The notes: generated from the sequence alone by a model not told the origin. A stretch of 56,042 nucleotides of DNA from Polyangiales bacterium (GCA_046351555.1 JAXLYI010000029.1:109727-165768); one strand, 5' to 3'. Positions 3,807-27,433 are shown, numbered from the stretch's first letter. Numbers and translations: made by a program.

Positions 3807-5461
3807 CCGCGCCGCCCGACACGATGGCGTCGCTCGTGCGGGCGCGTGCCGAGCGGTCGCCCGACGACGTCGCGCTGTGCACGCGCCGCGACGGGCGGTG
3901 GACGCCGTGCACGTGGGCCTCGCTCTGGGAGGACGCCCGCCGGGTCGCGTCGGGCCTCGCCGCGGCGGGGCTGCGGCCGGGCGACCACGCGCTCTTCCTG
4001 CTGCCCGAGGTGGAGCTCGCCGTCCCGATGCTCTTCGGCGCGTGGGCGCTGGGCGTGGTGCCCGCGATGGTGGGCGTCCCGTTTCGTCTGACGGACGTCG
4101 CCCGCTTCGTCGACGGGCTCCGCGACACCGCGCGCCGCCTCGACGCCCGCGCGCTGGTGACCTCGCGCGCGCTCGCGGCCTTCGCGACCGACGCAGAGGC
4201 GCTCCCCGTGATCGCCGCGGAGGACCTCCTCGCCCACGACGTCGCCCCCTTCGCGGTGGCCCGCGCGTCCGCCGCGCCCGCGCTCATCCAGCCCACCAGC
4301 GGGAGCACCGGCCGCCCGCGCGGGGTCGTCCTCGCCCACGACCGCCTCCTCACCCACGTCGCGTGCGTGAGCGCCGCGCTGCCCGCCGACGCGTCGTCCG
4401 TGGGCCTCTCGTGGCTCCCGCTCCACCACGACATGGGGCTCGTCGGGGGCCTGCTCTACCCGCTCGTCAACGGCTTCGTCGTCCACCTGCTCCCGCCCGC
4501 GGACTTCCGCGCGAGGCCCTTCTCATGGCTGGAGGCGATGAGCGAGCTCCGCGCCACGATGACCGCCGCGCCGCCGTCGGCCTACGCGGTCGCAGCGCGC
4601 CTCGCCCCGCGCGCCGCCGCGGCGGGGCTCTGCTTCGACGCGTGGGCGTGCGCGATGGTCGGCGCCGAGCCCGTCCGACCCGCCGCGCTGCGCCGCTTCG
4701 CCGAGGGCTTCGCGCCGCTGGGCTTCCGCGCGGAGGCGTTCTTCCCGGTGTACGGGCTCGCCGAGGCGACCGTGGCGGTCACCTTCCCGCGGCCCCTCGC
4801 GCCCACCCGCGTCGACGTGGTCGACCGCGACGCGATCGAGCGGGAGGGCCGGGCGGCGCCCTGCGACGCGTCGGCGCGGGCGATGGAGTTCGTCTCGGTG
4901 GGCGCGCCCATCCCGCGCACCGAGGTGCGTATCACCGCGGGCGACGGCGGCGCGCTGCCCGAGCGCCGCGTCGGGGAGATCGTCGTCCGCTCGCCGTCGC
5001 TGATGGTGGGCTACCACGACGAGCCCGAGGCCACCGCGGCGGCGCTGCGCGACGGGTGGCTGCACACGGGCGACCTGGGCTACCTCGCCGACGGCGAGCT
5101 CTTCGTCACGGGCCGCGTGAAGGACGTCATCCTCCGCGGCGGGCACGGGATCCTCCCGACGGCGGTGGAGGAGGCGGCGTCGGAGGTCGAGGGCGTGCGC
5201 GCGGGCTGCGTCGCGGCGGTCGGCGTGCCCGACGAGGACACCGAGCGCTGCGTCGTCCTCGCCGAGACCCACGAGGCCCCCTCGGCCCACGCCGCGCTCG
5301 AAGCCCGCGTCCGCGGCGCGCTCGAAGCCAGAGGGCTCTTCGTCGACCGCGTCGTGCTCCTCCCGCCCGGCGCGCTCCCCCGCACGACGAGCGGCAAGCT
5401 GCGCCGCCGCGCCGTCGCCGACGCGCTCGCCGCGGGCCGCGCGCTGGAGGCGGCGGAGTGA
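3803..5461 (+). CDS. fatty acyl-AMP ligase / acyl-CoA synthetase family adenylating enzyme
   Basis: AMP-binding motifs QPTSGSTGRPRGVVLAHD, YGLAEATV, TGDLGY, SGKLRRR. GTGA overlap with the upstream methyltransferase. Confidence 0.85.
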   Translation: MTAPPDTMASLVRARAERSPDDVALCTRRDGRWTPCTWASLWEDARRVASGLAAAGLRPGDHALFLLPEVELAVPMLFGAWALGVVPAMVGVPFRLTDVARFVDGLRDTARRLDARALVTSRALAAFATDAEALPVIAAEDLLAHDVAPFAVARASAAPALIQPTSGSTGRPRGVVLAHDRLLTHVACVSAALPADASSVGLSWLPLHHDMGLVGGLLYPLVNGFVVHLLPPADFRARPFSWLEAMSELRATMTAAPPSAYAVAARLAPRAAAAGLCFDAWACAMVGAEPVRPAALRRFAEGFAPLGFRAEAFFPVYGLAEATVAVTFPRPLAPTRVDVVDRDAIEREGRAAPCDASARAMEFVSVGAPIPRTEVRITAGDGGALPERRVGEIVVRSPSLMVGYHDEPEATAAALRDGWLHTGDLGYLADGELFVTGRVKDVILRGGHGILPTAVEEAASEVEGVRAGCVAAVGVPDEDTERCVVLAETHEAPSAHAALEARVRGALEARGLFVDRVVLLPPGALPRTTSGKLRRRAVADALAAGRALEAAE

Positions 5462-9050: not shown

Positions 9051-10247
9051 ATGACCCGCGCCACGCTCCTCGCCGCGCTCGCCCTCGCGGCGTGCTCGCC
9101 CAACACCGTCGGCCCCGGCAGCAACGCCACCGTCGACGGCGCCACGCCCGACGGCGCGCTCCCCGACGCCGGAACGCCTGACGGCCTCACGGTCGACGTG
9201 CTCACCAGCGACGGCGCGGTCCCCTCCGACGCGACGGTCACCAACGACCTGCCGAGCACCACCGACGTCCCGACCACCACCGATGTCCCGATGACCACGG
9301 ACGCGCCCGCGGCGTCGCTGCGCGGGATGTGGCGCGCGGTTCGCTACGAGTTCACCAGCGAGGGGCGTTCGTACACGCTCACCGACCGCGACACGCCCAT
9401 CGACCAGGGCACCGGCGTGTCGACGCCCTTCCGCGTCAACGGGCTCCTCTACCTCGACCCCACGCACTTCGCGATCACCTTCGGCACGCTCGCGATGGGC
9501 TACTTCTACACGTACACCCCGATGGTGACCGGCGACCTCGGCTACACCGCCGCGGGCTACGGCGTGCCCGGCGTGCTCGACGACGCGCGCGGGGAGTTCG
9601 CGATCACGGGCTCGCCCACGCCGACGCGCTTCGCCCGCAACGCCGACGGCTCCATCTCCTTCGTCGACCCGACCTCCGGCGCCCGCACCACCTACGCGCG
9701 CACCAGCACCCCGGGCCCCGCCCTCGCCTCCATCAACGCCGCGGGCCTCGCGGTGGTCGCGGAGGGCTTCACCCCCGCCGCCACGCACCCGCGCGTCGCG
9801 CTCCTCTGGGACCTCCGCGGCGACGCGCGCTGGCTCGAGACCAACGGCACCGCGGTGCGCTTCGCCACGCGCTTCGCGACCTTCCCGCTCACGCTCACCG
9901 CCGCGCCGACGGAGGCCGTCACCGCGTGGATGGGCAGCCAGGTGGCCGTCGCGCGCATCGTCGCGTACGAGGACGCCAACAACAACCTCGCCTACGACCG
10001 CGGCGCCGACCCGCTGCTCGGGCTCTCGCCGGTCGCGATCACCTGGCGCGCGGCCGCGGACTTCGCGCCGTCGGGCGCCGGGCACTTCCCGCTCCGCCAC
10101 GTGCCCGACGGCCTGCGCTACGGCCACGCGCACCCCGACTACGCGCTCGGCCGCGAGGACGTCGTCTCCTTCGACCACGCCGTCCCCGTCTCGCCCGGCG
10201 TCCCGATCCAGCGCATGCCGCCGGGCGGCCTCCCCGAGATCCTCTGA
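9051..10247 (+). CDS. hypothetical lipoprotein
   Basis: Signal MTRATLLAALALAACSPN; T/D/P-rich linker followed by a globular region. Confidence 0.55.
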   Translation: MTRATLLAALALAACSPNTVGPGSNATVDGATPDGALPDAGTPDGLTVDVLTSDGAVPSDATVTNDLPSTTDVPTTTDVPMTTDAPAASLRGMWRAVRYEFTSEGRSYTLTDRDTPIDQGTGVSTPFRVNGLLYLDPTHFAITFGTLAMGYFYTYTPMVTGDLGYTAAGYGVPGVLDDARGEFAITGSPTPTRFARNADGSISFVDPTSGARTTYARTSTPGPALASINAAGLAVVAEGFTPAATHPRVALLWDLRGDARWLETNGTAVRFATRFATFPLTLTAAPTEAVTAWMGSQVAVARIVAYEDANNNLAYDRGADPLLGLSPVAITWRAAADFAPSGAGHFPLRHVPDGLRYGHAHPDYALGREDVVSFDHAVPVSPGVPIQRMPPGGLPEIL

Positions 10248-10316
10248 GGCACCGCGCGCGGCGCGTGCTACGGTGCGCGCCCCGCCCCCTCCCCCACCGC
10301 CCCCGCAAGGTCCGTC

Positions 10317-10796
10317 ATGTCCGCCGTGAAGCCCGCCGAGGGCATCAAGCTCATCGCCGAGAACCGCCGCGCCGTCGTCCGCTACCACGTCGACGAGCGC
10401 ATCGAGGTGGGCGTCGCCCTCATGGGCTCGGAGGTGAAGAGCCTCCGCGAGGGCAAGATGGAGATCGGCGACGCCTACGCCGTCGTGCAGAACCACCAGC
10501 TCACGCTGATCAACGCGTACATCCCGCCCTACCGCTACGCGACGCTGATCAAGCACGAGGAGAAGCGCTCGCGCCGCCTGCTCGCGCACCGCGCGGAGAT
10601 CGACCGGCTCGACGGCAAGGTCTCGCAGCGCGGCTACACGCTCATCGCGCTGCGCGCGTACTTCAAGGACGGCAAGGTGAAGATCGAGCTGGGCCTCGCG
10701 CGCGGCAAGGAGACCGCCGACCGGCGCCAGGAGATCAAGAAGCGCGAGCAGGACAAGGAAGCGCGCGCCGAGATGGTGCGCGGCCGCAAGGGGTAG
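10317..10796 (+). CDS. smpB: SsrA-binding protein SmpB
   Basis: Canonical SmpB sequence: IAENRRAVVRYHVDERIEVGVALMGSEVKSLREGK...GYTLIALRAYFKDGKVKIELGLARGK. Confidence 0.95.
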   Translation: MSAVKPAEGIKLIAENRRAVVRYHVDERIEVGVALMGSEVKSLREGKMEIGDAYAVVQNHQLTLINAYIPPYRYATLIKHEEKRSRRLLAHRAEIDRLDGKVSQRGYTLIALRAYFKDGKVKIELGLARGKETADRRQEIKKREQDKEARAEMVRGRKG

Positions 10797-10851
10797 TCAC
10801 CCCTTCCGAGTGTTCTCCGCGGCTCGTATTCGTCGATCGAACCCGTCGTCC

Positions 10852-11094
10852 GCGCCGTCGCCCAGGGTTCGCCCGCCTGCCCTCGCTGAGTGGTTTAGGC
10901 TCCCCCTGGGCTTCGAGCATGGGATCATCCGCCCGGTGGCGGATTCCGGGAGCAGGCGGGAATCGCGGGCGTCGCACGTCGCCCTCGTCGCCTCGTTGGG
11001 AGCCCGGTACCGACCGGGCGATCCCATGCTCGAAGCCCAGGGGGAGCCTAAACCACTCAGCGAGGGCAGGCGGGCGAACCCTGGGCGACGGCGC
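10852..11094. repeat. family-A palindromic hairpin element, copy 1 (perfect ~75-bp inverted arms + ~93-nt structured loop)
   Basis: Left arm 10852-10926 is the exact reverse complement of right arm 11020-11094 (core cgcccagggttcgcccgcctgccctcgctgagtggtttaggctccccctgggcttcgagcatgggatc). Confidence 0.85.
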
Positions 11095-11157
11095 TGGGCG
11101 ACGGCGCGGACAGCGAGAATTGACGACCCCATGGAGCACCTCGAAACGAGGTGTTCG

Positions 11158-11787
11158 TCACCACCCGAAGCGAAGCCCGATGCCCGCGGTGAAGAGCCCA
11201 CCGCGCAGCGGGACGTCGCCCGCGATCACGTTGTACCCGCTCACCTCGGGGACGAGCCACCAGCGCTCGCCGAGCCGCGCCTCCGCGTTGACGAAGGCGC
11301 CGAGCCACGCGCCGCCCGCGCTCCCTCCCGCCTCGGGGAGGTAGAGGCCCGCGCCGAGCGAGGGCCCCGCGGAGAGCGCCCAGGTGCGCGAGAGGCGGTA
11401 CGTCACCGGCACCGTGGCGGCCGCGAAGAGGTGGACCGCGTTGGTCGTGGTCGACGTGAGCGGCGTGCGGGCGAACGACAGCTCCGGCGCGACGGCCACC
11501 GACCACGCGCCGCGGTGGACGAAGCGGACGGTGGCGAGCGCGCTCACGCCCACGGTGTAGAGCCTGACGCCGACGTCGAAGTCGTCGGTGACGCCGCGCT
11601 GGAGCCCGAGCGCGCCGTAGCCCGTGGGCGAGCGCGCCCCCGTCTCGCGGTCGGCGAGCGCGCCGCCGGCGGCCACGAGCGACGCCTGCCAGTGGCCCGC
11701 GGGGACGGGCTCGGCGCTCCGGTACATCGACGTCGACGGGCACCCGAGCGCGAGCGCCGCCAGCACACTAACGGCGCGGGTTCGCAT
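11158..11787 (-). CDS. outer-membrane beta-barrel-like protein (lipoprotein signal)
   Basis: Signal MRTRAVSVLAALALGCPS; alternating hydrophobic pattern; C-terminal GIGLRFGW with a terminal aromatic. Confidence 0.6.
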   Translation of the reverse strand: MRTRAVSVLAALALGCPSTSMYRSAEPVPAGHWQASLVAAGGALADRETGARSPTGYGALGLQRGVTDDFDVGVRLYTVGVSALATVRFVHRGAWSVAVAPELSFARTPLTSTTTNAVHLFAAATVPVTYRLSRTWALSAGPSLGAGLYLPEAGGSAGGAWLGAFVNAEARLGERWWLVPEVSGYNVIAGDVPLRGGLFTAGIGLRFGW

Positions 11788-12769
11788 CGAAGAACCTCAC
11801 GATCTCCTCGCTGGCGTTCACGTCGCGCGACACGCGGCCCACGGTGTCGACGTCGAGGTACTGGTGGCCGCCGGGCCAGGTGTGCCCCCCGCCCTCGACG
11901 CGCAGGTGAACCACCGGCGCCGCGCAACCTTGCCATGTGCGTCGGGTGACGCGCGTCCCATCGGCGGCCGCATCGGCGAGGGCCTCGTCGCGCGCGTCGG
12001 CGCCGCAGCCGTTGCGGGCCCTCCAGCCCGCGAGTGTCTCGTCGACGCCCACCTTGCGGCCCTCTTCGAGGAAGGCGCAGGTGCTCGTCCGCGTCTCGTA
12101 GCCCCAGCACGGGTCGTCGACGCCGTGGATCTGCATCACCGGCACGCGCGCGTCGCAGCGCCCGCCCGCGACGGCGAACTGGTTGGTGCCGCCAACCGCG
12201 GCGAAGGCGGCGACCACGCCGGGGCGCTCGCACGCGAGGCGGTGCGAGACGGCGCCGCCGTTGGAGAGGCCCGTGACGAAGACCCTGCGGCGGTCGACGG
12301 GGACGCTCTTCTCGACGGCGGCGAGGAGGCGGTCGAAGAACGCGACGTCGTCGACGCCCGACTGGCACGCGCCGCGGCTCACGCACTGCCAGCCGTCGCG
12401 GCCGCCGCCCGCGTTCCATGAGCGGACGTTGCGGAGCGGGCGGAGGCCGGTGCCGTCGGGGAAGACGACCACGTAGCCCGCGGCGAGGGCCACGGCGGAG
12501 AGGCACCCGGGCTCGCCGGGCGTCCCCGTCGGGCACGTCACGCTCTCGGCCGAGCGCCGGTTGCCGCCGCCACCATGGAACGCGACGATGACGGGCAGCG
12601 CCGCCGTCCCGTCCCACCGCGCGGGCACGCGCAGCGAGAAGGCGCGGTCGAACTCGCCCTCGACGGGGCACTCGAGCGAGGCCCCAGGCGAGGCGCGGCC
12701 GCAGGGGTCGAGCGTGGTGAGGCAGCCCGTGAGGATCGCCCCCGTCGCGAGGAGGAGAAGCCGGCCCAT
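11768..12769 (-). CDS. esterase / PHB-depolymerase family lipoprotein (alpha/beta hydrolase)
   Basis: Signal MGRLLLLATGAILTGC. Motifs VIVAFHGGGG, nucleophile GLSNGG, IHGVDDP. Confidence 0.75.
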   Translation of the reverse strand: MGRLLLLATGAILTGCLTTLDPCGRASPGASLECPVEGEFDRAFSLRVPARWDGTAALPVIVAFHGGGGNRRSAESVTCPTGTPGEPGCLSAVALAAGYVVVFPDGTGLRPLRNVRSWNAGGGRDGWQCVSRGACQSGVDDVAFFDRLLAAVEKSVPVDRRRVFVTGLSNGGAVSHRLACERPGVVAAFAAVGGTNQFAVAGGRCDARVPVMQIHGVDDPCWGYETRTSTCAFLEEGRKVGVDETLAGWRARNGCGADARDEALADAAADGTRVTRRTWQGCAAPVVHLRVEGGGHTWPGGHQYLDVDTVGRVSRDVNASEEIVRFFDANPRR

Positions 12770-12796
12770 CGCCGACGACGATACCTCAACCGCGCG

Positions 12797-12845
12797 TCAA
12801 AACGTGTGGCTCCAGCGGCTGCCGGCGATCACGTTGCCGACGCCA
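12797..12845. repeat. duplicated copy of the last ~45 nt plus stop codon of phoD, placed on the far side of family-A copy 2
   Basis: tcaaaacgtgtggctccagcggctgccggcgatcacgttgcc here, versus tcagaacgtgtggctccagcggctcccggcgatgacgttgcc at 13117-13165. Confidence 0.75.
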
Positions 12846-13081
12846 CCGCCCAGGGTTCGCCCGCCTGCCCTCGCTGAGTGGTTTAGGCTCACCCTGGGCT
12901 TCGAGCACGGGAGCGCCCGGTCGGTACCGGGCTCACGACGAGGCAACGAGGGCGACGCGCGATGCCAGCAATTCGCGCCGGCTCCCGGAGTCCGCCACCG
13001 GGCGGACGATCCCATGCTCGAAGCCCAGGGTGAGCCTAAACCACTCAGCGAGGGCAGGCGGGCGAACCCTGGGCGGTGGCG
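12841..13081. repeat. family-A palindromic hairpin element, copy 2 (inverted relative to copy 1)
   Basis: Arms and loop are the reverse complement of copy 1. The arm substitutions (cccc->cacc, gtcg->accg) are mirrored in both arms, so the self-complementarity is preserved. Confidence 0.85.
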
Positions 13082-13122
13082 CGGGCGACGGCGTATTCTG
13101 GGCGGCGCATTCAACGCGCGCG

Positions 13123-14746
13123 TCAGAACGTGTGGCTCCAGCGGCTCCCGGCGATGACGTTGCCGGCGCCGTTGACGAACTCCGCGCGCAGCGTGCGGGT
13201 GGCGGGGTCGGCGCGGAGCACGGTGTAGTTGTGCGTGCCGATCACCGAGACGGGCCACTGGCCGTCGCGCAGGGGCGGGCGGCCGTCGCGGTCGGCGCCG
13301 GCGGGGCCCATGATCACCTCCCAGATGTCGGCGAAGGGGCCGGTCGGCTCCACCTTGCAGACGCCGCCGAAGTGGACGTCGCCCGAGAGCCACACCACGC
13401 CGCGGAGGCGGTTGCTGTCGATGTGGCGGAGGATCTCCTGGCGCTGCGAGGCGTAGCCGTTCCAGTTGTCGGCGTCGGCGCCCGCGCGGTCGACGATGGG
13501 CACCGAGTTGACGATGAACTTGAACACGCACGGCGACGCGCGGAGGCCCGCCTTGAGCCAGTCCATCTGCGCGCGGGAGATGTACTGCGAGCGGCGCGCG
13601 ACGTTGGTCGAGCGCGTCGACGGGAGCCGCTCGCTGCGGCAGTCGAGCACGAAGATCTCCGCGGTGCGCCCCCAGCGGAAGCTCCGCCAGATGCGCTCGG
13701 GCGCGGCCGCGTTGCGTCGCGTGGCGCGGTGCTCGAAGAAGGCCTGGCGCGCGGCGGCGAGGCGCGCGGCGCTCAGGGTCTCGGGGTCCCAGTTGTTGAG
13801 CACCTCGTGGTCGTCCCAGGTGAGGTACATCCCCGTCGAGCGGTGGAGCGCGCGGAGGCCCGCCGACGTCCAGTTCTGCTCGTACTTCGCGCGGTACTGG
13901 GCGAGCGTCGCCGCGTTGTCGGCGTAGTCCGTGTAGACGTGGTCGCCGGCGTGGATGAAGAAGTCGAGGTCGTCGCGGCCGCCGGCGTGCTGGAGCGCGG
14001 GGAAGGGCCGGTGCCGCTGGTTGGTGCACGACGTCCCGCCGAACACGAGCGGCACGAGCGCGTCGGGCGCGGGGGCGGTCTGCACGCGGCCGACGAGGCT
14101 CCGCCCGGTGGGGGCGCCCGCGGGGCCGACGAGGAAGGCGTAGAGGTGCTGCTTGTTGGCGCGCAGCCCGTTGACCACCGCGCGCACGTAGCCCGCGGAC
14201 GACGCGTCGACCGCGCCGTCGAAGCGGACCGCGGCGATGCGCGCGCCGTTCATCTCCAGCACGCGGAGGCGGACGGCGCCGGTGCCGGCGTAGCGCGTCC
14301 AGAAGATCACCGACGTGTCGGTCGCGTCGCCCGCCATCACCCCGAGCGGAAACTGCGCCGCACGCTCGGGCAGCGAGCGGAAGTCGGGGTCGGCCACCAT
14401 CCCCGCGTCGCGCGCCACGTCGGGGCGGGCGGCGTCGACCCGCGCCACGTCGGGCGCCGCGTCGAGGCGAACCACGTCAGGCGCAGCGTCGGCGCGCGCG
14501 TCGAGGGAAGCGTCGCGGGCTGCGTCCAGCGCGGCGTCGGGCGCAGCGTCTTCCGCAGGCGCGGCATCCACTGCAGCGTCGTCACCCGCGTCGTCGCCCG
14601 CGTCGGGGTCGATCGGCATCGCGTCGTAGGTGGGGTCGGGCCCGGCGTCCTCGATCGGGTCGGGCGTGTACACCTCCTCGTCGGCGCAGGCCACAGCGCA
14701 CACGGCCCCCGCGAGCTGAACGAACCGTCGTCGGGTGAGCTTCATC
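13123..14746 (-). CDS. phoD: alkaline phosphatase D family (PhoD), Tat-secreted
   Basis: Twin-arginine signal MKLTRRRFVQLAGAVCAVA. Metallophosphatase motifs GDHVYTD, TWDDHEV, SGDVHFGG. Confidence 0.85.
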
Positions 14747-14828
14747 GCCCTCAAGCTCCTAACACACCGGGCGCGCCGTCGATCGCGCGGCCGCCGCGGA
14801 AAGCGCCGTGATAGCCTCCGCGCCACCA

Positions 14829-15098
14829 ATGGCCCGCATCACCTGGGACGACGGCGGCGAGGCGACCCTCGGCCCCGTCCACGACGTCACCGTCACCCTC
14901 GTCGACTCCACCCGCGCCTATCCCCCGGGCGCGCCGGTGCGCGGCACGCTCCACGGCGCGTCCGACGTTGCCTTCACGCTCAAGGTCGCGGGTTCGAAGC
15001 GTGAGGGCGAGGGCTTCACCGTCCGTGGCAAATTGGTGAGCGCCACCACCGCCGTGCGCGACGCCTTCCACGCGCTCAGCGCGCCACCCCCAGCCTGA
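14829..15098 (+). CDS. small hypothetical protein; its 3' end is duplicated after the adjacent repeat
   Basis: ORF MARITWDDGGEATLGPVHDVTVTLVD...GKLVSATTAVRDAFHALSAPPPA, divergent from phoD. The last ~22 codons recur at 15403-15487. Confidence 0.35.
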   Translation: MARITWDDGGEATLGPVHDVTVTLVDSTRAYPPGAPVRGTLHGASDVAFTLKVAGSKREGEGFTVRGKLVSATTAVRDAFHALSAPPPA

Positions 15099-15142
15099 AC
15101 TTCCGCTGGCTGCCTTGCGACCATGCGCCCCGGGCCCGTCGA

Positions 15143-15391
15143 GCCTCCATCCCCGCTCGCTTCGCTCGCGCGTTTCCCCTTCCTCCGCCGCAGGAAGCGG
15201 CAGAGGAAGGGCATCAGGCTCGCCGCGGACGTGCGTGGCTCGGGCGTCCCTCGTCGCGACGTCGCGTTCATGCGTGGGCGTCATCGTCGCGTCGGTGCCG
15301 AGGCGTATTCGGTGCCGCAACCCCCTTCCTCTGCCGCTTCCTGCGGCGGAGGAAGGGGAAACGCGCGAGCGAAGCGAGCGGGGATGGAGGC
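15143..15391. repeat. family-B palindromic hairpin element, copy 1 (~68-bp arms, ~108-nt loop)
   Basis: Arm gcctccatccccgctcgcttcgctcgcgcgtttccccttcctccgccgcaggaagcggcagaggaaggg is mirrored at 15321-15391. Flanked by ~100-115 bp direct repeats (14996-15110 and 15390-15487). Confidence 0.85.
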
Positions 15392-15557
15392 TCGAAGCCC
15401 GCGGCAAATTGGTGAGCGCCACCACCGCCGTGCGCGACGCCTTCCACGCGCTCGGCGCGCCACCCCCAGCCTGAACTTCCGCTGGCCGCCGCCCGCCCAA
15501 CGCATGGCCGCGGCTGGCCACCCGCGCATCGTGCGCCCCGGGTCACCATGGCGGCCC

Positions 15558-17462
15558 ATGAGCCACACCCTCCGCCTCGCCGCCGCACTCGCCTTCGCGG
15601 CCGTCGCGTCGTGCTCCGACGCGTCGCCCCCGGCGCAGTCCGACGGCGTCGAGACCTTCGCCAACCCGCCCGAGCTCGCCCCCGACGCGCAGGGCAACTA
15701 CACCCTCCGCCTCACGCCCGCCGCGGTGGAGGTCGGCGGCCAGCGCTACTGCCTCCGCACCTACAACGGCAGCGTGCCGGGCCCCACCATCCGCGTCCGG
15801 GCGGGGACGAACCGCCGCCTCCACGTCACCCTCCGCAACGAGCTCACCCGCTCGGACTGGCGCGAGATCTCGGGCATGGAGGGCCACGAGGCCCCGAGCT
15901 GCCACGACTTCAACGTCACCAACCTGCACTTCCACGGCGGGCACGTCCGCCCCGATTTCGCGGCCGCCGACCCGGCCGACCCGTGCGTCGGCGACGGCTG
16001 CGGTGACGGGCAGCGCTACCACGGCGACAACGTTCTCATCGCGGTGCAGCCCGCCGGGATGGCCCGCTACCGCTGGGACCTCGACGAGGACGGGACCCAC
16101 CACGAGGGGACCCAGTGGTACCACCCGCACATCCACGGCTCGACGGCGATCCAGGTGATCAACGGGGCCGCCGGGGCGCTCATCGTGGAGGGCGCGCTCG
16201 ACGCCGAGCCCTCCGTCGCGGCGACGCGCGAGCGGGTGATGGTGATCCAGGAGATGCCCCTCGCCCACCAGTACACGCGGCCCCTCGCGGCGGGCGAGGC
16301 GTGCACGGTCAACAACCTCTCGGTCAACAACTTCCTCTCCGTCACCGAGGGGATGCCGATGGCCGTCAACGGCAAGGTGAAGCCGCGGCTCGTCACCGCG
16401 CCGGGCCAGGTCGAGCGCTGGCGCATGGTCTACGCCGGCACGCCCGACGAGATGGGGATGAAGCTCCACCCGTCGAGCGACCCCAACTGCGGGACGTTCG
16501 ACATCACCCGCCGCGTCGAGCTGGTGCAGTACGCCCGCGACGGCATCACCATGCCGCGCTACTACCGCAACGACACGGTGTGGGTGTCGCCGGGCTACCG
16601 CGTCGACTCCTTCGTGCAGATGCCCACGACGCCGCAGACGCTCTGCCTCGTCGGGCGCCGCACGCACGACCTCCTCGGCAGCGTGATCGCGATCGTGGAG
16701 GTGCGCGCGGGCCGCACGCCGACGGCCACGCAGCTCCCGCCGGAGTCCGCGGTGACCGCGCACGCGCCGCCCACCACCTGGACGGGCCGCGTCGACGGCG
16801 CGATGACCACCGTGAGCTGCGAGTCGGTGACGCGCATCCACCAGCGCGTGTCGCTGCTGACCACGCCGGTGCCGTCGGGCTCGTCAGCGATGATGTCGTC
16901 GGGGGCCGCGTGCACACCGCCGGCGGGCCCGCACGACCCGCACGCGGGCGCGCCGGTGTGCCAGTGCCCGGCGCCCAACATCAACTGCCGGAGCTTCGAA
17001 GACCGCCGCTTCCGCAACTACCGGAGCGACCGCGTGGCGACGGTGGGCGACAGCGAGAAGTGGGAGATCGTCGCGGCCGACGGGCACCCCTTCCACATCC
17101 ACATCAACCCCTTCCTCGTGTGCGCCAACGACTCGAACAAGGAGCCCAACTTCCCCCACTGGCGCGACACCTTCTGGGTGCAGGTCGACGACCGCCCGCG
17201 CCAGGTGATGATGAACTTCCGCGCCTTCACCGGCCGCTTCGTCACGCACTGCCACAAGCTCAACCACGAGGACGAGGGGATGATGGAGCTGTTCGAGCTC
17301 TGCGCCCCCGGCGACACCGCGTGCCTCTGCCAGCGCATGGAGGGCGGCGCGTGCGTGAGCCAGGCGGGCTGCCAGGCCGACGACCGCCAGTGCCAGTTCG
17401 CGGCGCTGGCGGCGGCGAGCTTCCCGCGCCCGCCGATCCCGCCGCCGGGGCTCTGCAACTGA
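15558..17462 (+). CDS. multicopper oxidase (lipoprotein)
   Basis: Signal MSHTLRLAAALAFAAVASCSD. Copper-ligand motifs NLHFHGGH, WYHPHIHG, HPFHIHINPF, HCHKLNHEDEGMM. Confidence 0.85.
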   Translation: MSHTLRLAAALAFAAVASCSDASPPAQSDGVETFANPPELAPDAQGNYTLRLTPAAVEVGGQRYCLRTYNGSVPGPTIRVRAGTNRRLHVTLRNELTRSDWREISGMEGHEAPSCHDFNVTNLHFHGGHVRPDFAAADPADPCVGDGCGDGQRYHGDNVLIAVQPAGMARYRWDLDEDGTHHEGTQWYHPHIHGSTAIQVINGAAGALIVEGALDAEPSVAATRERVMVIQEMPLAHQYTRPLAAGEACTVNNLSVNNFLSVTEGMPMAVNGKVKPRLVTAPGQVERWRMVYAGTPDEMGMKLHPSSDPNCGTFDITRRVELVQYARDGITMPRYYRNDTVWVSPGYRVDSFVQMPTTPQTLCLVGRRTHDLLGSVIAIVEVRAGRTPTATQLPPESAVTAHAPPTTWTGRVDGAMTTVSCESVTRIHQRVSLLTTPVPSGSSAMMSSGAACTPPAGPHDPHAGAPVCQCPAPNINCRSFEDRRFRNYRSDRVATVGDSEKWEIVAADGHPFHIHINPFLVCANDSNKEPNFPHWRDTFWVQVDDRPRQVMMNFRAFTGRFVTHCHKLNHEDEGMMELFELCAPGDTACLCQRMEGGACVSQAGCQADDRQCQFAALAAASFPRPPIPPPGLCN

Positions 17463-17612
17463 CGACGACGCGGTGGGGCGCGCGGGGGAGTGGAGCCCGC
17501 GCCCCTCTTCCCTCCGCCCGAAGTGCGCAGCTACGATATGCGCCGTGGCGCGGGCTTGCGATGCAGGCGCCGCTCCTGACGAGAACCTTCCCTTCGCTTC
17601 GGAGACGACGTT

Positions 17613-18144
17613 GACGCGCACGACGCCTGCCTTCTCGCTGGCCGCATCTCTCCTCCTGGCGGCCTGCGCCAGCACCGACGCCGGCGTGGACGGCGCCACG
17701 TCCCCTGACGCGGTCGCCGACACGGTCGCCGACACGCAGACGCCCGACGCGGACGTCGTGACGCCGCCCGATGCCGCGCCCGACGCAGCGCCCGACGCAG
17801 CGCCCGACGTGAGCGTGACGCCCGACGCGACCGCGACGCCCGAGACCGGCGTGGACGCGCCCGACGACGCGCAAACGCCCGCGTGGCTCGCCGGGCCCGT
17901 CGCGTGCGGGGGCGCCACCTGCGCGGCGGGTCAGGTCTGCCTGTACTTCACCAACGTCGACCCGGCGCAGGGGCCGCAATGCTCCGGCGCGCTCTCGCCC
18001 TCGGCCGTGAGCGACTGTCCCGCCAGCGCCGCGTGCCGCGACGCCCTGGCGCGGGCGTGCGGGACGATGACGCTCAACGTCGACGTCCGCACGCGCCACG
18101 TGACGTGCTGCTTCGGCACGCCGAGCGCCTGCCCGACGCTGTAG
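17613..18144 (+). CDS. hypothetical lipoprotein with PDAA repeats and a Cys-rich C-terminus
   Basis: TTG/ATG-proximal signal LTRTTPAFSLAASLLLAACAS. Low-complexity DAAPDAAPDAAPD tract. Start codon uncertain. Confidence 0.45.
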
Positions 18145-18169
18145 TCTCCTCGGCGCGAGAGGAGGCCGC

Positions 18170-18457
18170 TTGTTCTACCGCTACACGCAGATCAACGTCG
18201 GGGGCTACCACGAGGGGCCGCAGGTCGTCATCGTCGAGGCGGAGGGCCTCGCGGAGGCCGAGGCCGCCGCGCAGGGCGCGGGCGTCTACTTCGACGGCGT
18301 CGCTACCGGGCGCGACTGCGAGTGCTGCGGCGACCGCTGGACGCGCTACCCCGACGAGTTCGCCACGCGCGAGGAGGCCGTCGCGTCGGTCGAGGCGAAC
18401 CGCCAGCCCGAGGAGAGCAGCCCGGTGTGCCAGGTGGTCGACCGCGCGTCGGGGTGA
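18170..18457 (+). CDS. small hypothetical protein (95 aa), TTG start with GGAGG RBS
   Basis: gagaggagg sits 6 nt upstream of TTG. Coding-like composition. CECCGDRW motif. Confidence 0.4.
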   Translation: MFYRYTQINVGGYHEGPQVVIVEAEGLAEAEAAAQGAGVYFDGVATGRDCECCGDRWTRYPDEFATREEAVASVEANRQPEESSPVCQVVDRASG

Positions 18458-18475
18458 GCGCGGTCGACGCGCGAC

Positions 18476-19229
18476 TCAGGGCCGCCCGGCCGGGTCGGGG
18501 CGGACGGAGAAGCCGCGCCCGAAAGCCATGCCGGGTGACGTTTCGATGCCGTTCGCGCTGGAGCCGGGGATGTTGCCGCGGAGGGGAACGGGGGCGGCGA
18601 GAAACGTCCCGCCGCGCGCGCCGGTGATGACCCCGGCGTGCACCGCCGCGGCGCAGACGCGGGACGGCAGGTCGTAGGGGTTCGTCCCCCGCGTGAAGCT
18701 GTTGAGGCGCTCGCCCGGCGGGCAGAACATCCGCAGCGGCTTGTGGAAGGGGCCCTGGAAGAAGCTCTCGCCGGTGTCCTCCCACTCCGCGCGCAGGGCG
18801 CCGGGCGGCGTCTCGACGCGCGGCGGACGCGGCGGGACGACACGCTCGGCCACCAGCCCCGGCGCGGGCCCGCCCTGCATCTCGAAGCCCCCCTCGCGGA
18901 TCGGGCCCACCCAGCCGAGGGAGCGCACGCCGTTGCGCACGGTCCCGTCGACGCCGCCCCCGACGAAGATGCCCGATTGCACCACGATGGTCACCGGCCC
19001 CCCCGCGCGGGTCACGCGCCCGGCGTGGAGCGCCGCGCCGCACACCGAGGACGCGTCGTCGTAGCGGTCGGTGCCGTAGATCGGCCCCGGCGACCCGCCG
19101 GGCGCGCAGGCGAAGGTGTAGACGCCGGGGCGGAGCGTGCGCGCGGTGAAGTTCCAGTCGATCGCCTCGGGGCCGGGCGGCCGCGGCGGCGGGTCGCGAC
19201 GCGAGGTGCAACCAAGCGCCAGCGCCATC
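18476..19229 (-). CDS. LCCL-domain lipoprotein (two LCCL-like modules)
   Basis: Signal MMALALGCTS. Two copies of the LCCL signature ...SSVCGAALHAG... / ...SRVCAAAVHAG... Confidence 0.6.
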
Positions 19230-19389
19230 ATCACGCGGCCGAAGCGGCCGATCGTCTCCCGCGTCACGGCGGCGACGCTATCACGCGAAGCGCCGCGGCG
19301 TGTTCGCCAGCGCGTCCTCTGGTATGGGTCACGACCTGCCATGAAGACACCGACGCCCTCGCTCGGCAGGTGCGCGCGGGCGGGGCGAC

Positions 19390-19690
19390 GTGCTCGACTG
19401 GCGCGGCCGGCGCGACCTCATCGACGGATTCGAAGCCGCCGACCTCCCCGCCGACGTCGCGCGCGCCCTCCTCGCCTACTGCGACCGGATCGGGGTCCAA
19501 TTCGCGGCCTTCGACCTCGTCGAGGACGCCGACGGCGTGTTGTGGTTCATCGAGGGCAACACCACGGCCTACTGCACCACTTCATCGAGCGGGCGACGGG
19601 ATTGCCCATCAGCGAAGCGATCGCCGACCTGCTCGTGGGTGCGCTTCCCCCGCGCCCCGCGCCGACGCGCGGAGCGCCGACGGGTTGAGC
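19390..19690 (+). pseudogene. C-terminal fragment of an ATP-grasp-like enzyme, frameshifted
   Basis: RDLIDGFEAADLPADVARALLAYCDRIGVQFAAFDLVEDADGVLWFIEGN in one frame continues as HHFIERATGLPISEAIADLLVGA in another. No N-terminal half present. Bracketed by ~70-bp direct repeats (19301-19370 / 19741-19810). Confidence 0.4.
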
Positions 19691-19780
19691 GGCGCCACCA
19701 GGCCGAGTCCCCACCGTCAAAGCGAGCGTCGCCCCGCGGCGTGTGCGCCCGCGCGTCCTCTGGTATGGGTCACGCCCTGC

Positions 19781-20555
19781 CATGAAGACACCGACGCCCT
19801 CGCTCGGCAGCGCGCTCTGGCTCCCGTGCGCCCTCGCGCTCGCGTGCAGTGGGGCGACGCCTCCTCGTCCGATCGTTCCCCTCGCCTCAGCGGTCGTCGC
19901 GCCCGAGCCCGACCCGGACGGCGACGGCCTCACCGGATCGAGTGACCGGTGCCCCGACGCGCCCGAAGACTGCGACGGCCACGACGACGCGGACGGTTGC
20001 CCCGACCCCGACGACGACCAGGACGGCGTCGCGGACGTGTGCGACGCATGCCCCGAGGAGCGGGGCGCCGCGCCGGACGGGTGCGCGCACCTCGTCATCG
20101 TGGAGCAGGCGCAGCTCCGCATCCTGCGGGGCGCCTGGTTCGCGCGCAGCAGCGCCGTCCTCACGCCGACGTCGCGCCTGCGGCTCGACGAGGTCGCGCA
20201 GGTGCTGGTGAACCAACCCCAGATCCGCCGCGTGGCCGTCGAGGGGCACGCCACGCGCGACGAGCGCGACCCCGGGCGCCTCTCGGCGCGGCGGGCCGGA
20301 GCCGTGCGGGACTACCTCGTCGCGCGCGGGGTCGACGCAGCGAGGTTGGAGACGCAAGCGCTCGCGGACACGCGCCCCGTCGCCGCGCCCAACGAGACGC
20401 ACGCCGCCGAGCGGAACCGCCGCGTGGACTTCCGCGTGCTCGACGTGGAGGAGCCAGCGCCGCACTCGTCACACCCGCGCGTGGTAGTGCCGGTGGGCTG
20501 CCCCGACCACCCGCCGCCGCCGGCCCGCGGGCCGTGCCGTCCGCCGCCGACCTGA
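19781..20555 (+). CDS. OmpA-family lipoprotein with thrombospondin type-3 Ca-binding repeats
   Basis: Signal MKTPTPSLGSALWLPCALALACSG. DxDxDG repeats: DPDGDGL, DADGCPDPDDDQDGVAD. OmpA C-domain signature FARSSAVLTPTSRLRLDEVAQVL...VEGHATRDERDP...SARRAGAVRDYL...NRRVDFRVL. Confidence 0.8.
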
Positions 20556-20707
20556 AGCCCGTGCCATCGGTGCCAGCGGCACGGTCACGCCACCGCGCGC
20601 GAGGCACGACGCTCCTCCGCGGATTCCGCGCGAAGTCAGGCGTCTTCGCGCGCTGGCATGCGTGCTGCTCGAGGGAGACACGCAACCCCTCCCCAAGGAG
20701 ACACGCC

Positions 20708-20860
20708 ATGAAGAACGAGAAGCAGATCGAGACCGTCGCCGCCGAGACCGCCGCCCCCGCGAGCGTGACGCCCTTCTTCGCCCGCGCCCGCGCGCTCGGC
20801 CTCCCGCGGCTGCAGACGCACGTCAAGGCGGGCCGCAAGCAGGAGGAGTCCGAGAAGTAG
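20708..20860 (+). CDS. small ORF (50 aa) with strong RBS; candidate precursor/partner peptide of the downstream oxygenase
   Basis: AAGGAG sits 7 nt upstream of ATG. High-GC3 codon usage. MKNEKQIETVAAETAAPASVTPFFARARALGLPRLQTHVKAGRKQEESEK, no Cys. Confidence 0.4.
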   Translation: MKNEKQIETVAAETAAPASVTPFFARARALGLPRLQTHVKAGRKQEESEK

Positions 20861-20905
20861 CCCGCTTCCACGCTCGACCCCACCCACGACGTCGACGGTG
20901 CACCG

Positions 20906-21592
<687 letters not shown>

Positions 21593-21664
21593 CGGGCCCT
21601 GCCGGAGTGAAACATGTGCGTGACGGGCACCCTCCCCCGCATCCGCCGTGATAGACGATTCTCC

Positions 21665-23500
21665 ATGTCTTCCTCCGCCACGCTGCGTTTGTCGGTCGTC
21701 GCTTCGCTCTTCGTCCTGGGGTGCAGCGAGTCCCCGCAACCCGCGGCGCCCGAGGCCGGCTGCGCGGGGGCGGCCTGTGACGCGGGCGACGCGGGCGACG
21801 ACCTCGCCTCCTTCGACGGTCCCACCTTCGACATCCCCGACGTCGCGGTCGGTGACGGCGCGCCCGCGGGCGACGTCAGCCCGACCGACGCGTCGGACGT
21901 CGCTGCGGCCGACGCGCCCGCGGGCGACGCGGCGGTGGCGGACGTCGCGCCGCCGCCCTGCCCGCTCTATCAAGCGCGCTGCAACGGCGCGTGCGTCGAC
22001 GTGAGCGGCGACCCGGCCAACTGCGGCTCGTGCGGCGCAACCTGCCCGGCGGGGCGCGTGTGCGTGGCGGGGGCGTGCGCGCAGGCGTGCCCCGGCGGGC
22101 TGACCGCGTGCGGGGGACGCTGCGTCGACGCGCAGAGCGACAGCGCCCACTGCGGCGCGTGCGGGGCCCGCTGCGACGCGGGGATGGGCTGCGTGGCGGG
22201 GCGCTGCGCGCGGCAGGTGTTCACCGACCCGAGCGGGGCGCCGTGCGCGGGCGGCGGCGCGCCGGTGGAGCTCGGGGGCGGGCGGTGCGCGGGCGCGGTG
22301 GCGGAGACGTCGTTCCGCTGGGCGATCTGCTCGTGCTCCGACCTGCGGATGACGACGCCGCTGGTCACCGACGGCTTCGACAGCACGGGCGGCGGGTACG
22401 CGCCCGGCGGCGTCGGGGCGGGCGTCGGCGTCAACGCGACCTTCTCCAACACCAACACCACGGACGTCGGCGGCGCGCTGTGGGTCGGGGGCGCGCAGGC
22501 GTGGGGCATCTCGGCGCCGCAGCGCGTGCGGCAGGTGCTCAAGCTCAACGCGTCGTTCCTGGCCAACAACGGGCTGACGGTGGGGGGCGACGCGTACGTC
22601 AACGGCGACGCGCGCGGCAACGTGCCGGTGGCCATCACCGAGACGCTCCACGTCCCCGCCGGCGCGACCGTCGACCCGATGGTGAGCTACCGCCGCGTGG
22701 CGCGCGAGCCCGTGACGGTGGAGCCCCCGTGCGACTGCTCACCCGCGACGCTCGTCCCCGTCGCCGCGCTCGTCGCGGAGGGGCGGACGCGCAACGACAA
22801 CGCCCGCATCGGCCTCGACAGCGAGGCGCTGGTGACGCCCGGCACCGACCGCCGCCTCGACCTGCCCTGCGGGCGCTACTACATCTCGAGCATCGGCAAC
22901 CCGGGCTCGGTGACGATCGTCGCGCACGGGCGGACGGCCCTCTTCATCGGCGGCGACGTGGCGGTGACGGCGCCGATCGCGATCACCCTCGACGAGGGGG
23001 CCGAGCTCGACCTGGTGATCGGCGGGTCGTTCCGCGCGACGTCGACGGTGGCGCTCGGGTCGCCGGCGCGGCCTGCGCTCACGCGCGTGTACATCGCCGG
23101 GGCGGAGGGCTTCCGCGCGACGGGGACCACCACCGTGGGCGGCAACCTCTACCTGCCCGGCGGGACGTTCGACATCACCACGCCGCTCGAGGTGTGGGGG
23201 AGCGTCTTCGCGGGGAGCTTCCGCTCGACCAACACCGTCTCCGTCCACTACGACCGCGGCGTGCTGCGCGCGGGCGACACCTGCCGCAACCCGCCGCCCA
23301 CGCCCGGCGCCGACGCGGGCGCGCCCGACGGGGGCGGTACGGACGCGGGTGGCGACGGCGGGACCCCGGCCTGCACGAGCTGCCGCGACTGCGCCAACCA
23401 GGCCTGCGTCGGCGGCCGCTGCGGCGCGTGCCGCGGCGACGGCGACTGCTGCGCGCCGCTCCAGTGCTGGATGGGCCGCTGCGTCGTCATCCCGGGCTGA
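21665..23500 (+). CDS. secreted Cys-rich repeat lipoprotein (myxobacterial-type CxxCGxCGxxC repeats at both ends)
   Basis: Signal MSSSATLRLSVVASLFVLGCSE. Repeats ACVDVSGDPANCGSCGATCPAGRVCVAGAC and similar. Confidence 0.65.
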   Translation: MSSSATLRLSVVASLFVLGCSESPQPAAPEAGCAGAACDAGDAGDDLASFDGPTFDIPDVAVGDGAPAGDVSPTDASDVAAADAPAGDAAVADVAPPPCPLYQARCNGACVDVSGDPANCGSCGATCPAGRVCVAGACAQACPGGLTACGGRCVDAQSDSAHCGACGARCDAGMGCVAGRCARQVFTDPSGAPCAGGGAPVELGGGRCAGAVAETSFRWAICSCSDLRMTTPLVTDGFDSTGGGYAPGGVGAGVGVNATFSNTNTTDVGGALWVGGAQAWGISAPQRVRQVLKLNASFLANNGLTVGGDAYVNGDARGNVPVAITETLHVPAGATVDPMVSYRRVAREPVTVEPPCDCSPATLVPVAALVAEGRTRNDNARIGLDSEALVTPGTDRRLDLPCGRYYISSIGNPGSVTIVAHGRTALFIGGDVAVTAPIAITLDEGAELDLVIGGSFRATSTVALGSPARPALTRVYIAGAEGFRATGTTTVGGNLYLPGGTFDITTPLEVWGSVFAGSFRSTNTVSVHYDRGVLRAGDTCRNPPPTPGADAGAPDGGGTDAGGDGGTPACTSCRDCANQACVGGRCGACRGDGDCCAPLQCWMGRCVVIPG

Positions 23501-23504
23501 CCCT

Positions 23505-24722
23505 TCACTGCATGAGGCGCCGGAGCAGCGCGAGCTTGCGCGCGTTGGGCGTGCGCCAGTCGTCCTGGAGCACGCCCCCGGTGTCGCCGGCGTTGGCGTT
23601 GAGCGCCCAGTAGAAGAAGCCGCGGAGGTCGCGGGCGGCCATCCACCCGACGACGGCGTCCTGCCACGCGACGTCGCCGGCCGCGCGCGCGTCGTCGTAC
23701 CACCCGCAGAACTCACCGATGAGCACGTTGTGCCCGGCGGCGTGGAGGTGGCCGAAGTGGCGCTCCCAGATGGCGGGCATGTTGCGCGGGAAGTCGGCGG
23801 CGTCGAAGTAGGGCATCCGCGCGACGCTCGGGCCGTAGACGTGCGGGGAGTACACGAGGCGCTCGCGCGGGAGGCCGACGGGCTGGGCGGCGGCCTCGGT
23901 GAGGTTCTCGCCCCAGAAGACGCTCTGGCCGCCGTTGTCGGAGGCGTTGCCGACGCCCTCGACGAACACCAGCACGCGCGGGTTGCGGCAGAGCACGGCC
24001 TCGCCGCCGGCCTGCGCGAGCTCGCGCCACTCCGACCAGCGGAGGGCGTGGGGCTCGTTGCAGAGGTCAACGCCGAGCACGACGGGCTGGTACGCCTCGG
24101 CGAGCGCGGCGAGCTCGCGGAGGTCGGCGAGCCACTGCGCGCGGTCGTAGCCGGCGCACGCGATTGGCGAGCCCGGGAGCGAGCCCCCGAGGCGCGAGGC
24201 GTCGCAGATGTGGAAGTCGAGGAGCACGCGCATGCCGCGCGACCGGCAGTGCCCGAGGAGGGCCTCGAGCTGCTCGCGGCCGGTGTCGATGGACCCGCGG
24301 TTGGCCCAGCCCGCGGAGGCGTTGCCGGGCCGGATGCTCGACGGCGAGAGCGGCACGCGCAGCGCGGTGAACCCGAGCGAGAGCGCCTGGTCGACGAACT
24401 CCTCCATCGGCCGCGCCCACAGCCCGTGCGGCGCGCGGTCGGGCGTCTCCAGGCCGAACCAGTTGAGCCCCCACACGGGCACCGTCCGGTCGCCGTAGTA
24501 GACGCGCGACCCCTCGGCGCGCCACGAGCCCTCGCGCGGCACGCGCTGGCCGCAGACCGTCACCTCGCCCGACGCGCCGTCGGTGGGCGCGACGTCGGTG
24601 GCTGCGACGTCGGCGAAGGCATCGTCGGGGGCCGCGACGTCGAGCGGGACGTCCGCGGGCGGGCCCGCCGAGGCGCCGCAGGCGGTCGCGAGCACGGCCA
24701 GCGCGAAGAGGGCGCTTCTCAT
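23505..24722 (-). CDS. glycoside hydrolase family 5 (endoglucanase-like) lipoprotein
   Basis: Signal MRSALFALAVLATACG. Catalytic motifs LCNEPH (acid/base) and GEFCGW (nucleophile region). Confidence 0.8.
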   Translation of the reverse strand: MRSALFALAVLATACGASAGPPADVPLDVAAPDDAFADVAATDVAPTDGASGEVTVCGQRVPREGSWRAEGSRVYYGDRTVPVWGLNWFGLETPDRAPHGLWARPMEEFVDQALSLGFTALRVPLSPSSIRPGNASAGWANRGSIDTGREQLEALLGHCRSRGMRVLLDFHICDASRLGGSLPGSPIACAGYDRAQWLADLRELAALAEAYQPVVLGVDLCNEPHALRWSEWRELAQAGGEAVLCRNPRVLVFVEGVGNASDNGGQSVFWGENLTEAAAQPVGLPRERLVYSPHVYGPSVARMPYFDAADFPRNMPAIWERHFGHLHAAGHNVLIGEFCGWYDDARAAGDVAWQDAVVGWMAARDLRGFFYWALNANAGDTGGVLQDDWRTPNARKLALLRRLMQ

Positions 24723-24783
24723 GGGCCGCGATGATCGCACGGGGGCGCTGCGTTCGCGGGCGCCGTTCGACGTCCCGCGGCGC

Positions 24784-27361: not shown

Positions 27362-27433
27362 GGTGCGGTAGCCAAGAGGCCAGGCCACGGTTTGCAAAAC
27401 CGTTATACGTGGGTTCAAATCCCATCCGCACCT
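27362..27433 (+). tRNA. tRNA-Cys (anticodon GCA)
   Basis: Acceptor stem GGTGCGG/CCGCACC. Anticodon stem ACGGT/ACCGT with loop TTGCAAA. T-arm GTGGG-TTCAAAT-CCCAT. Discriminator T; CCA not encoded. Confidence 0.75.

Follow-up and report, generated by a model that had tools for sequence, protein, structure and literature searches.

Duplicated gene ends around two small palindromic elements in a Polyangiales genome

Hairpin elements and repeated gene ends at the locus

The DNA analysed here, called the window throughout, is a stretch of 56,042 nt from a Polyangiales bacterium (GCA_046351555.1, JAXLYI010000029.1:109727-165768) with a G+C content of 75.5%. It comes from a metagenome-assembled genome (MAG), and all sequences compared with it are metagenome assemblies as well. 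Genes were assigned using Pfam, including a survey of the genes neighbouring the elements. The window holds two copies each of two families of hairpin elements, A and B. In the list of features the direct repeats that flank A2 and B1 are labelled TSD, for putative target-site duplication.

10317-10796, + strand: smpB (Pfam)
10843-11106: family-A copy 1 (A1), inverted relative to A2, between the convergent smpB and 209-aa genes
11158-11787, - strand: 209-aa gene (Pfam survey)
11768-12769, - strand: alpha/beta-hydrolase-like gene, ATG at 12769 (Pfam)
12786-12844, - strand: TSD-A, non-functional copy, with a pseudo-stop at 12797-12799, between A2 and the start of the alpha/beta-hydrolase gene
12845-13110: family-A copy 2 (A2), a 266-nt insert with arms at about 12845-12934 and 12988-13077/13094
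13111-13170, - strand: TSD-A, functional copy, the real phoD 3′ end with its stop at 13123-13125 plus 12 nt downstream
13123-14829, - strand: phoD, stop at 13123-13125 (Pfam)
14808-15098, + strand: 96-aa gene, stop at 15096-15098 (Pfam survey)
15023-15114, + strand: TSD-B, functional copy, the 3′ end of the 96-aa gene, its stop and 16 nt downstream
15115-15142: 28-nt filler separating TSD-B from the B core, outside the family consensus
15143-15398: family-B copy 1 (B1), core 15143-15391, with the family termini GCCTCCATCCCC...GGGGATGGAGGC
15399-15490, + strand: TSD-B, non-functional copy, with a pseudo-stop at 15472-15474, upstream of the multicopper oxidase gene (start about 15549)
about 15549-17462, + strand: multicopper oxidase gene (Pfam)
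48388-50616: large serine recombinase gene, elsewhere in the window
53771-54127: family-B copy 2 (B2), long-armed subfamily, with arms of about 122 nt

Both A2 and B1 form near-perfect hairpins. The predicted DNA fold of A2 has an energy of -136 kcal/mol (z=-16.8 against shuffles) with two small stem-loops at its centre, and the terminal 16-19 nt of the insert (about 13092/13095-13110) are a filler absent from A1. The arms of B1 (15139-15211 and 15323-15395) are 73 nt long, 100% complementary and separated by a loop of 111 nt (z=-18.0 against shuffles). Neither insert (266 and 284 nt) contains a meaningful ORF or an integrase. No transposase, reverse transcriptase or HUH/RAYT protein was found among the 36 window ORFs scanned, and a scan for sigma-70 promoters and terminators gave nothing above chance.

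The initial annotation had described a copy of the adjacent gene's 3′ end on the far side of both hairpins. These duplications are real, with boundaries slightly wider than it gave. Around A2 (pair A), 12786-12844 and 13111-13170 match over 59/60 nt with four substitutions and one indel, as detected by repeat finding and gapped alignment; the ungapped core of 54 nt reaches E=1e-15 in self-BLAST. The repeat comprises the last 15 codons of phoD, the stop codon and 12 nt past it. Around B1 (pair B), 15023-15114 and 15399-15490 match over 92 nt with three substitutions (E=2e-39) and comprise the final 73 coding nt (24 codons) of the 96-aa gene, the stop codon and 16 nt past it, bracketing a 284-nt insert (15115-15398). 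The repeats are far beyond chance and are not a case of stale paralogy.

The order of gene end, element and gene-end copy also holds in both cases. Followed in the direction in which the upstream gene is transcribed, each locus runs from that gene with its functional repeat through a filler, the element and a tight junction to the pseudo-copy and the downstream gene. The filler measures 16-19 nt at A2 and 28 nt at B1; at the tight junction there are 0 nt at A2 and, at B1, 7 nt (TCGAAGC) between the core and the second repeat copy. As the upstream genes of A2 and B1 lie on opposite strands, the polarity of the junctions follows transcription and not chromosome orientation, which in these two events hints at a tie between junction polarity and transcription. 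Of the two breakpoints, the first falls 12-16 nt past the stop codon, the second 59-92 bp into the ORF. Thus, the 3′ end of the upstream gene is complete and the downstream gene keeps its native upstream sequence.

The second copies in the window have other surroundings. A1 is 92.7% identical to A2 over 245 nt and ends on the right in a 13-nt tandem repeat. A Ser/Thr kinase gene stops 8 nt before B2, which has a 70-nt arm core in common with B1 (94% identical); its long-armed form is also found at other loci (L024, L009). No duplication was found in the flanks of either copy, as the annotation had reported for B2.

A diversity-generating retroelement was considered for the repeats and rejected: the changes are G/C, C/G, A/G and T/C plus one indel and are not adenine-specific, the window ORFs include no reverse transcriptase, and the repeats run beyond the stop codon.

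Empty sites in related genomes

A comparison with related loci lacking the elements had been proposed in the initial annotation, and we carried it out. The sister contig WBZM01003640.1 (L001, 11.9 kb) was reached through its PhoD homologue, whose amino-acid identity is 90%. Over the aligned blocks, the contig matches window positions 10164-27019 collinearly at 92-98% nucleotide identity, and the flanks of the two sites are collinear at 93-97%. On its reverse complement, the segment 2446-2504 aligns with each of the two pair-A copies (12786-12844 and 13111-13169), and 4372-4463 with each of the two pair-B copies (15023-15114 and 15399-15490). The A2 and B1 hairpins are both absent from L001, with none near either site; the gap there is 27 nt from phoD to the hydrolase gene and 83 nt from the small gene to the oxidase gene. 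In the outgroup L036, about 80% identical across phoD and the small gene, each segment likewise occurs a single time and the elements are missing. The phoD loci of the more distant L002, L034 and L035 are not syntenic and thus uninformative on the empty site. A1 is missing from L001 too, where the intergenic region is too diverged for an empty site to be defined.

The single-copy, element-free arrangement of L001 and L036 thus represents the ancestral state, and insertion and duplication are derived in the lineage of the window. In a three-way alignment with L001, the two window copies share two derived states in pair A and four in pair B, and the private changes per copy are 3+2 and 3+0, respectively. 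The non-functional copy of pair A carries three private substitutions relative to L001 and the functional copy. Shared derived states, together with private changes in at least one copy of each pair, indicate that the duplications are recent and real. Neither phoD or small-gene sequence nor a long flank repeat was found at A1, B2, L031 (a family-A copy elsewhere) or about 30 family-B loci from other Polyangiales, so the duplicated DNA belongs to the target and not to the element. We conclude that the repeats of pairs A and B are, very probably, target duplications generated on insertion in two events. An unusually long target-site duplication was one of the two explanations first offered, and it is borne out by the way in which single segments of L001 and L036 align to both repeat copies. 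For A2 and B1, the scenario named beforehand as a refutation, an old tandem duplication that has nothing to do with the element, is excluded.

The other explanation first offered was site-specific integration that regenerates gene 3′ ends. Here an integrase would insert an element whose attP carries a copy of the gene end, leaving attL and attR. The layout of gene end, element and gene-end copy does resemble attL/attR, and the window encodes a large serine recombinase (48388-50616). In integrative elements at gene or tRNA 3′ ends, which likewise show an intact gene end, inserted DNA and a second, partial gene end, the repeat is borne by the element, is the same every time and comes with an encoded integrase. 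The repeats at A2 and B1, in contrast, are derived from the target, differ between the events and are absent from the other copies, which lie at unrelated sites and, in both families, hold no phoD or small-gene sequence. The elements themselves are non-coding and 250-280 nt long, the stretches that the two families duplicated are unrelated targets of unequal length, and filler separates repeat from element. Furthermore, strand exchange by serine recombinases proceeds at a 2-bp stagger and does not give rise to repeats of 59-92 bp. We find this explanation scarcely credible and do not retain it.

The same T-E-T order (target, element, target) would result from a single crossover of a circle carrying element and target (Campbell-type integration), and the element could also be left between two copies when a local tandem duplication loses an internal part. 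Indeed, a third repeat in the window, at 19285-19810, is best explained by tandem duplication and deletion. Both routes require that the element lay beside the target beforehand, but none lies near either site in L001 or L036, and the second A or B copy predicted downstream is absent. They are very unlikely to account for A2 and B1.

A metagenome assembly artefact, in which palindromes and strain mixtures were mis-threaded into a false T-E-T, also has to be weighed: the window is from a MAG, palindromes often break assemblies, and many family-B loci end at contig ends. Mis-threading at a palindrome, however, gives inverted and not direct flanks. The target copies differ, each pair including private substitutions, and the same architecture occurs twice with unrelated elements; to build it from strain chimeras, two separate insertions 59 and 92 bp apart would be required. 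We regard an artefact as highly improbable.

Families A and B beyond the window

Family A is rare. Exact matching of its 21-nt core gave no hit in 185,579 species genomes, a set outside which the source MAG lies, and a translated element-A protein search gave one match, a copy truncated in one arm on a 1.6-kb contig (L031). The ends of the three known copies (A1, A2 and L031) are less sharply defined than those of family B. The latter is widespread in Polyangiales, with two loci in another Polyangiales MAG (Lake Mendota) and 26 metagenome contigs, several of which come from the same assembly as L001.

The outer 33 nt hardly vary among the 34 distinct family-B arms, which come from about 30 loci; their layout is GCCTCCATCCCC(C)GCTCGC-spacer-CTCGCGCGTTT. 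About five variants of the spacer occur, and the two arms of a copy match in all eight complete copies, in one with a single mismatch. Each arm also contains a small internal hairpin, in which a compensated pair reads UA in 12 of 20 arms and CG in the other 8. B1, B2 and the copies of the other MAG have different central loops, and a loop can be common to copies of one MAG in inverted orientation (L003/L004). Further palindromic layers are added on the outside in some subfamilies (B2/L024/L009 and L028/L004/L006), the minimal form is a single hairpin of 91 nt (L018/L030), and copies are found combined with other interspersed repeats. Neither family matched Rfam at the gathering threshold or at E<=1.

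Bacterial repeats of the MITE, REP and BIME type include Correia, RUP, ERIC and REPIN/RAYT. Families A and B resemble them in being small, non-coding, multi-copy and hairpin-forming, in lying mostly between genes just downstream of a coding sequence, and in their conserved ends and mosaic subfamilies. Terminal inverted repeats conserved across copies, as expected of a MITE, are seen in the 34 arms of family B, and the post-stop location and nested mosaic architecture recall REP/BIME-REPIN elements. MITE target duplications are short and of fixed length (2-10 bp), and REP/REPIN elements make none; we know of no case in which either duplicated 59-92 bp. A and B differ from MITEs in that a fixed short target duplication is not present at every copy. 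From REP/BIME-REPIN elements they differ by much longer arms (73-122 nt), by the long duplications at two copies and by the absence of a RAYT/HUH protein from the window. By their sequences, A and B are MITE/REP-BIME-like palindromic mosaic repeats whose stems are actively maintained.

Outside A2 and B1, no target duplication was detectable at A1, B2, L003, L008, L017, L018, L021 or L028, and a flank repeat of any length was absent from about ten complete family-B copies elsewhere. A search of about 170 kb of related loci gave no other direct repeats bracketing short inserts of the A2/B1 kind. Repeats of 25 nt and 79 nt in the flanks of L027, L011 and L007 were rejected as target duplications, as they represent another interspersed repeat and paralogous gene segments.

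Seven of the 11 element copies checked lie 8-55 nt past a stop codon. As interspersed repeats of Polyangiales, families A and B and a third family, C, appear not to have been described before; they prefer sites just past stop codons. The initial annotation had raised targeting of gene ends. The positions agree with this, but selection could give the same pattern, and targeting and survivorship are compatible with it equally well. A near-neutral insertion within a tight gene pair survives, which by itself gives the look of regenerated gene ends. Judged from the sequence, insertion is apparently harmless even in intergenic gaps of 27 and 83 nt, with both genes intact. Long duplications would thereby permit insertion at gene ends and tight operon junctions without harm to either gene. 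They leave decaying pseudo-3′-ends behind, which could be mis-annotated.

Mechanisms of insertion and duplication

On balance, we lean towards A2 and B1 being recent MITE/REP-like insertions with target duplications of 59 and 92 bp, made through widely staggered nicks by an enzyme acting in trans. The element would be joined into a break with nicks on opposite strands 59 or 92 bp apart, and fill-in of the overhangs would copy the stretch between the nicks and so duplicate the target. An enzyme like those of IS1549 and IS1634, encoded elsewhere in the genome, might drive the insertion. A trans-acting enzyme is favoured by the ends of family B, which are sharply conserved across genomes. That a dedicated transposase with widely staggered cuts made the duplications is a proposal that we believe and doubt in nearly equal measure. 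Against it, the long duplication is seen at two events only, and A1, B2 and about ten B copies lack it. The junctions are unclean, with filler of 16-19 nt at A2 and 28 + 7 nt at B1, and the family-A ends differ among A1, A2 and L031, neither of which is expected of a precise transposase.

To our knowledge, bacteria seldom show target duplications that are both long and variable in length; only two insertion sequences are documented to make them. The same signature is found here around tiny non-coding palindromic elements, with empty sites in a sister genome, and offers a compact system for how strand breaks 60-90 bp apart couple to insertion. IS1549 of Mycobacterium smegmatis and IS1634 of Mycoplasma mycoides generate direct repeats of the target of 8-514 bp, which vary by copy and have no established mechanism (PMC2266710). 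A2 and B1 resemble them in their long target repeats of variable length made on insertion (59 and 92 bp, with empty sites in L001 and L036). The two insertion sequences, however, are autonomous elements of 1.5-2 kb that encode a DDE transposase and end in short inverted repeats, whereas A2 and B1 are 250-280 nt, non-coding and almost wholly palindromic, and most other copies of their families have no duplication. No IS1634-type transposase was found in the window.

A related option within the transposase class is the possibility of HUH-type copy-and-paste with "fuzzy ends" and variable duplications, by analogy with eukaryotic elements. In Chlamydomonas, insertions of Replitron-1 and some Helitrons carry additional "fuzzy" sequence on one side and duplicate the target over variable lengths, and HUH enzymes recognise DNA hairpins (PMC10288648). 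Those elements differ in being eukaryotic and autonomous, with a Rep gene and an RG target, and their fuzzy end can be traced to the parental flank. The fillers of A2 and B1, by comparison, have no traced donor flank, and the window encodes no HUH protein.

The fillers also bear on a serious rival, to which we give a minor but real chance: a template switch during replication or repair (FoSTeS/MMBIR-like or SDSA-like) with no dedicated enzyme. FoSTeS and MMBIR are labels for replication template switching. A nascent 3′ end would leave the target and copy a hairpin elsewhere, entering imprecisely through the donor flank. The new palindrome would then snap back, causing release and re-annealing 59-92 nt behind the point of exit, and so yield T-E-T. 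This would fit a filler that is mostly one-sided and lies both times beside the functional gene copy, and also the fuzzy or truncated ends of family A (A1, A2, L031) and the outer-arm extensions of family B, which vary by copy and subfamily. It would account for the missing duplications at most copies as well. A candidate donor, A1, lies inverted 1.75 kb from A2, and another duplication-deletion scar is present within the same 10-kb stretch. A long-distance template-switch model has been reported for E. coli (PMC1428787). Like templated insertions that arise through replication template switching in general, A2 and B1 place a foreign segment between local copies with imprecise junctions, filler and homeology. 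Template-switch insertions are usually one-off events with arbitrary donors, though, while A2 and B1 are complete members of conserved families.

At the junctions themselves the evidence is divided. The target ends at the tight A2 junction in 12 nt that read GTTGCCGGCGCC in L001, and 10 of these 12 positions agree with the terminus expected for the element, GTCGCCCGCGCC (derived from the other arm of A2 and from A1); p is estimated at about 5e-4 for one fixed position. This agrees with a template switch, but it is the only A2/B1 junction at which microhomology is significant. In a shuffle test with 45-nt windows, homology between insert ends and target flanks gave p >= 0.1 at all six junction flanks. 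No donor for either filler was found in the compared DNA, and the A2 filler is unlike the flank of A1. The B1 filler contains an 11-nt exact match, TGCGCCCCGGG, to target positions 15530-15540, 40 nt beyond the repeat. The duplication at B1 may therefore originally have been about 145 bp long and later have undergone an internal deletion. The sharply conserved termini of family B across genomes are also more easily explained by protein recognition than by a template switch, and no bacterial repeat family is known to us to have spread in this way.

In its general form, that the palindromic repeats of these myxobacteria spread without a transposase, by copying of a hairpin, ejection through fold-back and re-priming tens of bases behind, the proposal is quite unlikely to be right. 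If true, such fold-back copying would account for long and variable target duplications, for filler derived from donor flanks and for arms that keep their symmetry across copies. It would amount to a self-defining mobility of hairpin DNA in which gene ends are regenerated incidentally.

The repeat at 19285-19810 has a different history from those at A2 and B1, on which our preferred reading of staggered insertion rests. Here, 19285-19369 and 19726-19810 match over 85 nt at 93% and bracket 356 nt with no hairpin. The 85-nt segments comprise the upstream region of an OmpA-family gene, its start codon and 12 codons. The 356-nt insert is the 3′ end of a gene for an MvdD-type ATP-grasp ligase (residues 227-289 of a 322-aa homologue, 87% identity). 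A matching precursor-peptide gene and the first 12 ATP-grasp codons lie 1.2 kb downstream at 20709-20948, where they are fused to a 2OG-Fe(II) oxygenase ORF. As the other piece of the ATP-grasp gene is found there, a non-hairpin insertion with an 85-nt target duplication was rejected. Most simply, the segment from ompA to the ATP-grasp gene was tandemly duplicated in place and later underwent deletions. The repeat is no instance of the hairpin phenomenon, and a tandem duplication unrelated to an element does describe this repeat. The region around it is prone to duplication and deletion.

Gene-enclosing pairs of interspersed repeats

The two window copies of family A, a non-coding hairpin repeat, are mutually inverted (10843-11106 and 12845-13110) and enclose two genes (11158-12769), a layout similar to that of a composite transposon. 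In L001, the syntenic sister contig, neither copy is present and both enclosed genes are kept and collinear.

Inverted pairs are also formed by a third interspersed repeat, family C, which has the core GCGCCACTCCCCTCTCCAGCACGCG and is intergenic in all four of its window copies:

42840-42931, family-C copy
45559-45631, family-C copy
48025-48111, family-C copy
50768-50815, family-C copy
L010 (a related contig) 4450-4568, family-C copy

One pair encloses a large serine recombinase gene (742 aa, 48388-50616); the other lies around two genes (42896-45454), one for a Uma2-type endonuclease and one SASA-esterase-like.

Family-B variants and associated sequences

The second hairpin family, B, varies in size and stem among related contigs:

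L018 2392-2482 and L030 534-624, minimal form, a single hairpin of 91 nt
L006 88-410, terminal 30 nt duplicated symmetrically on both sides
L021 532-843 and L028 2252-2537, further variants

In other forms the stems reach 27-50 nt past the conserved core, and the sequence of this extension varies by copy or subfamily. The palindromes appear to grow outward and symmetrically.

A further interspersed motif (GGGTGCAGATCCATTGGAGGGGCGG...) repeatedly adjoins B elements in several metagenome contigs and can mimic a target duplication. It was found at:

L027 100-184 and 346-370
L011 2076-2098, 2257-2279 and 2316-2393
flanks in L018 and L028

In L022, two B copies have between them a homologue of a gene that is duplicated in the window. 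There, a direct repeat of ∼1 kb with 95-97% identity (30566-31573 vs 34856-35827) corresponds to a pair of paralogues, each about 320-330 aa long and lacking a Pfam match; the 3.3-kb segment separating them holds a gene for a 903-aa serine aminopeptidase/alpha-beta hydrolase.

Direct repeats, a segment missing from L001 and tandem repeats

The following features lie near ompA:

19285-19369 and 19726-19810, 85-nt direct repeat comprising upstream sequence of ompA together with its ATG and 12 codons
19370-19725, bracketed by the two repeat copies, a 3′ piece of an MvdD-type ATP-grasp gene that carries a frameshift
20709-20948, precursor-peptide gene and first 12 codons of the same ATP-grasp gene, 1.2 kb downstream

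The features at 20709-20948 are joined to a 2OG-Fe(II) oxygenase ORF as a fusion. The whole arrangement appears to reflect tandem duplication and subsequent deletions within a RiPP-like cluster.

L001 lacks a 4.2-kb segment (20546-24779), at whose junctions no repeats were found. Besides the precursor and the truncated ATP-grasp/2OG oxygenase, this segment carries a GH5 cellulase and a DUF7305/Stig1 protein.

Tandem repeats of the GGGGGCGACGTC type, 12, 15 and 18 nt long, form runs at 45022-45362 within a 619-aa minus-strand ORF; similar GACGTCGG-rich repeats are seen at 24563-24658 and in the phoD 5′ region (14389-14550). Rfam matched the window at one place only, a single tRNA gene (27362-27433).
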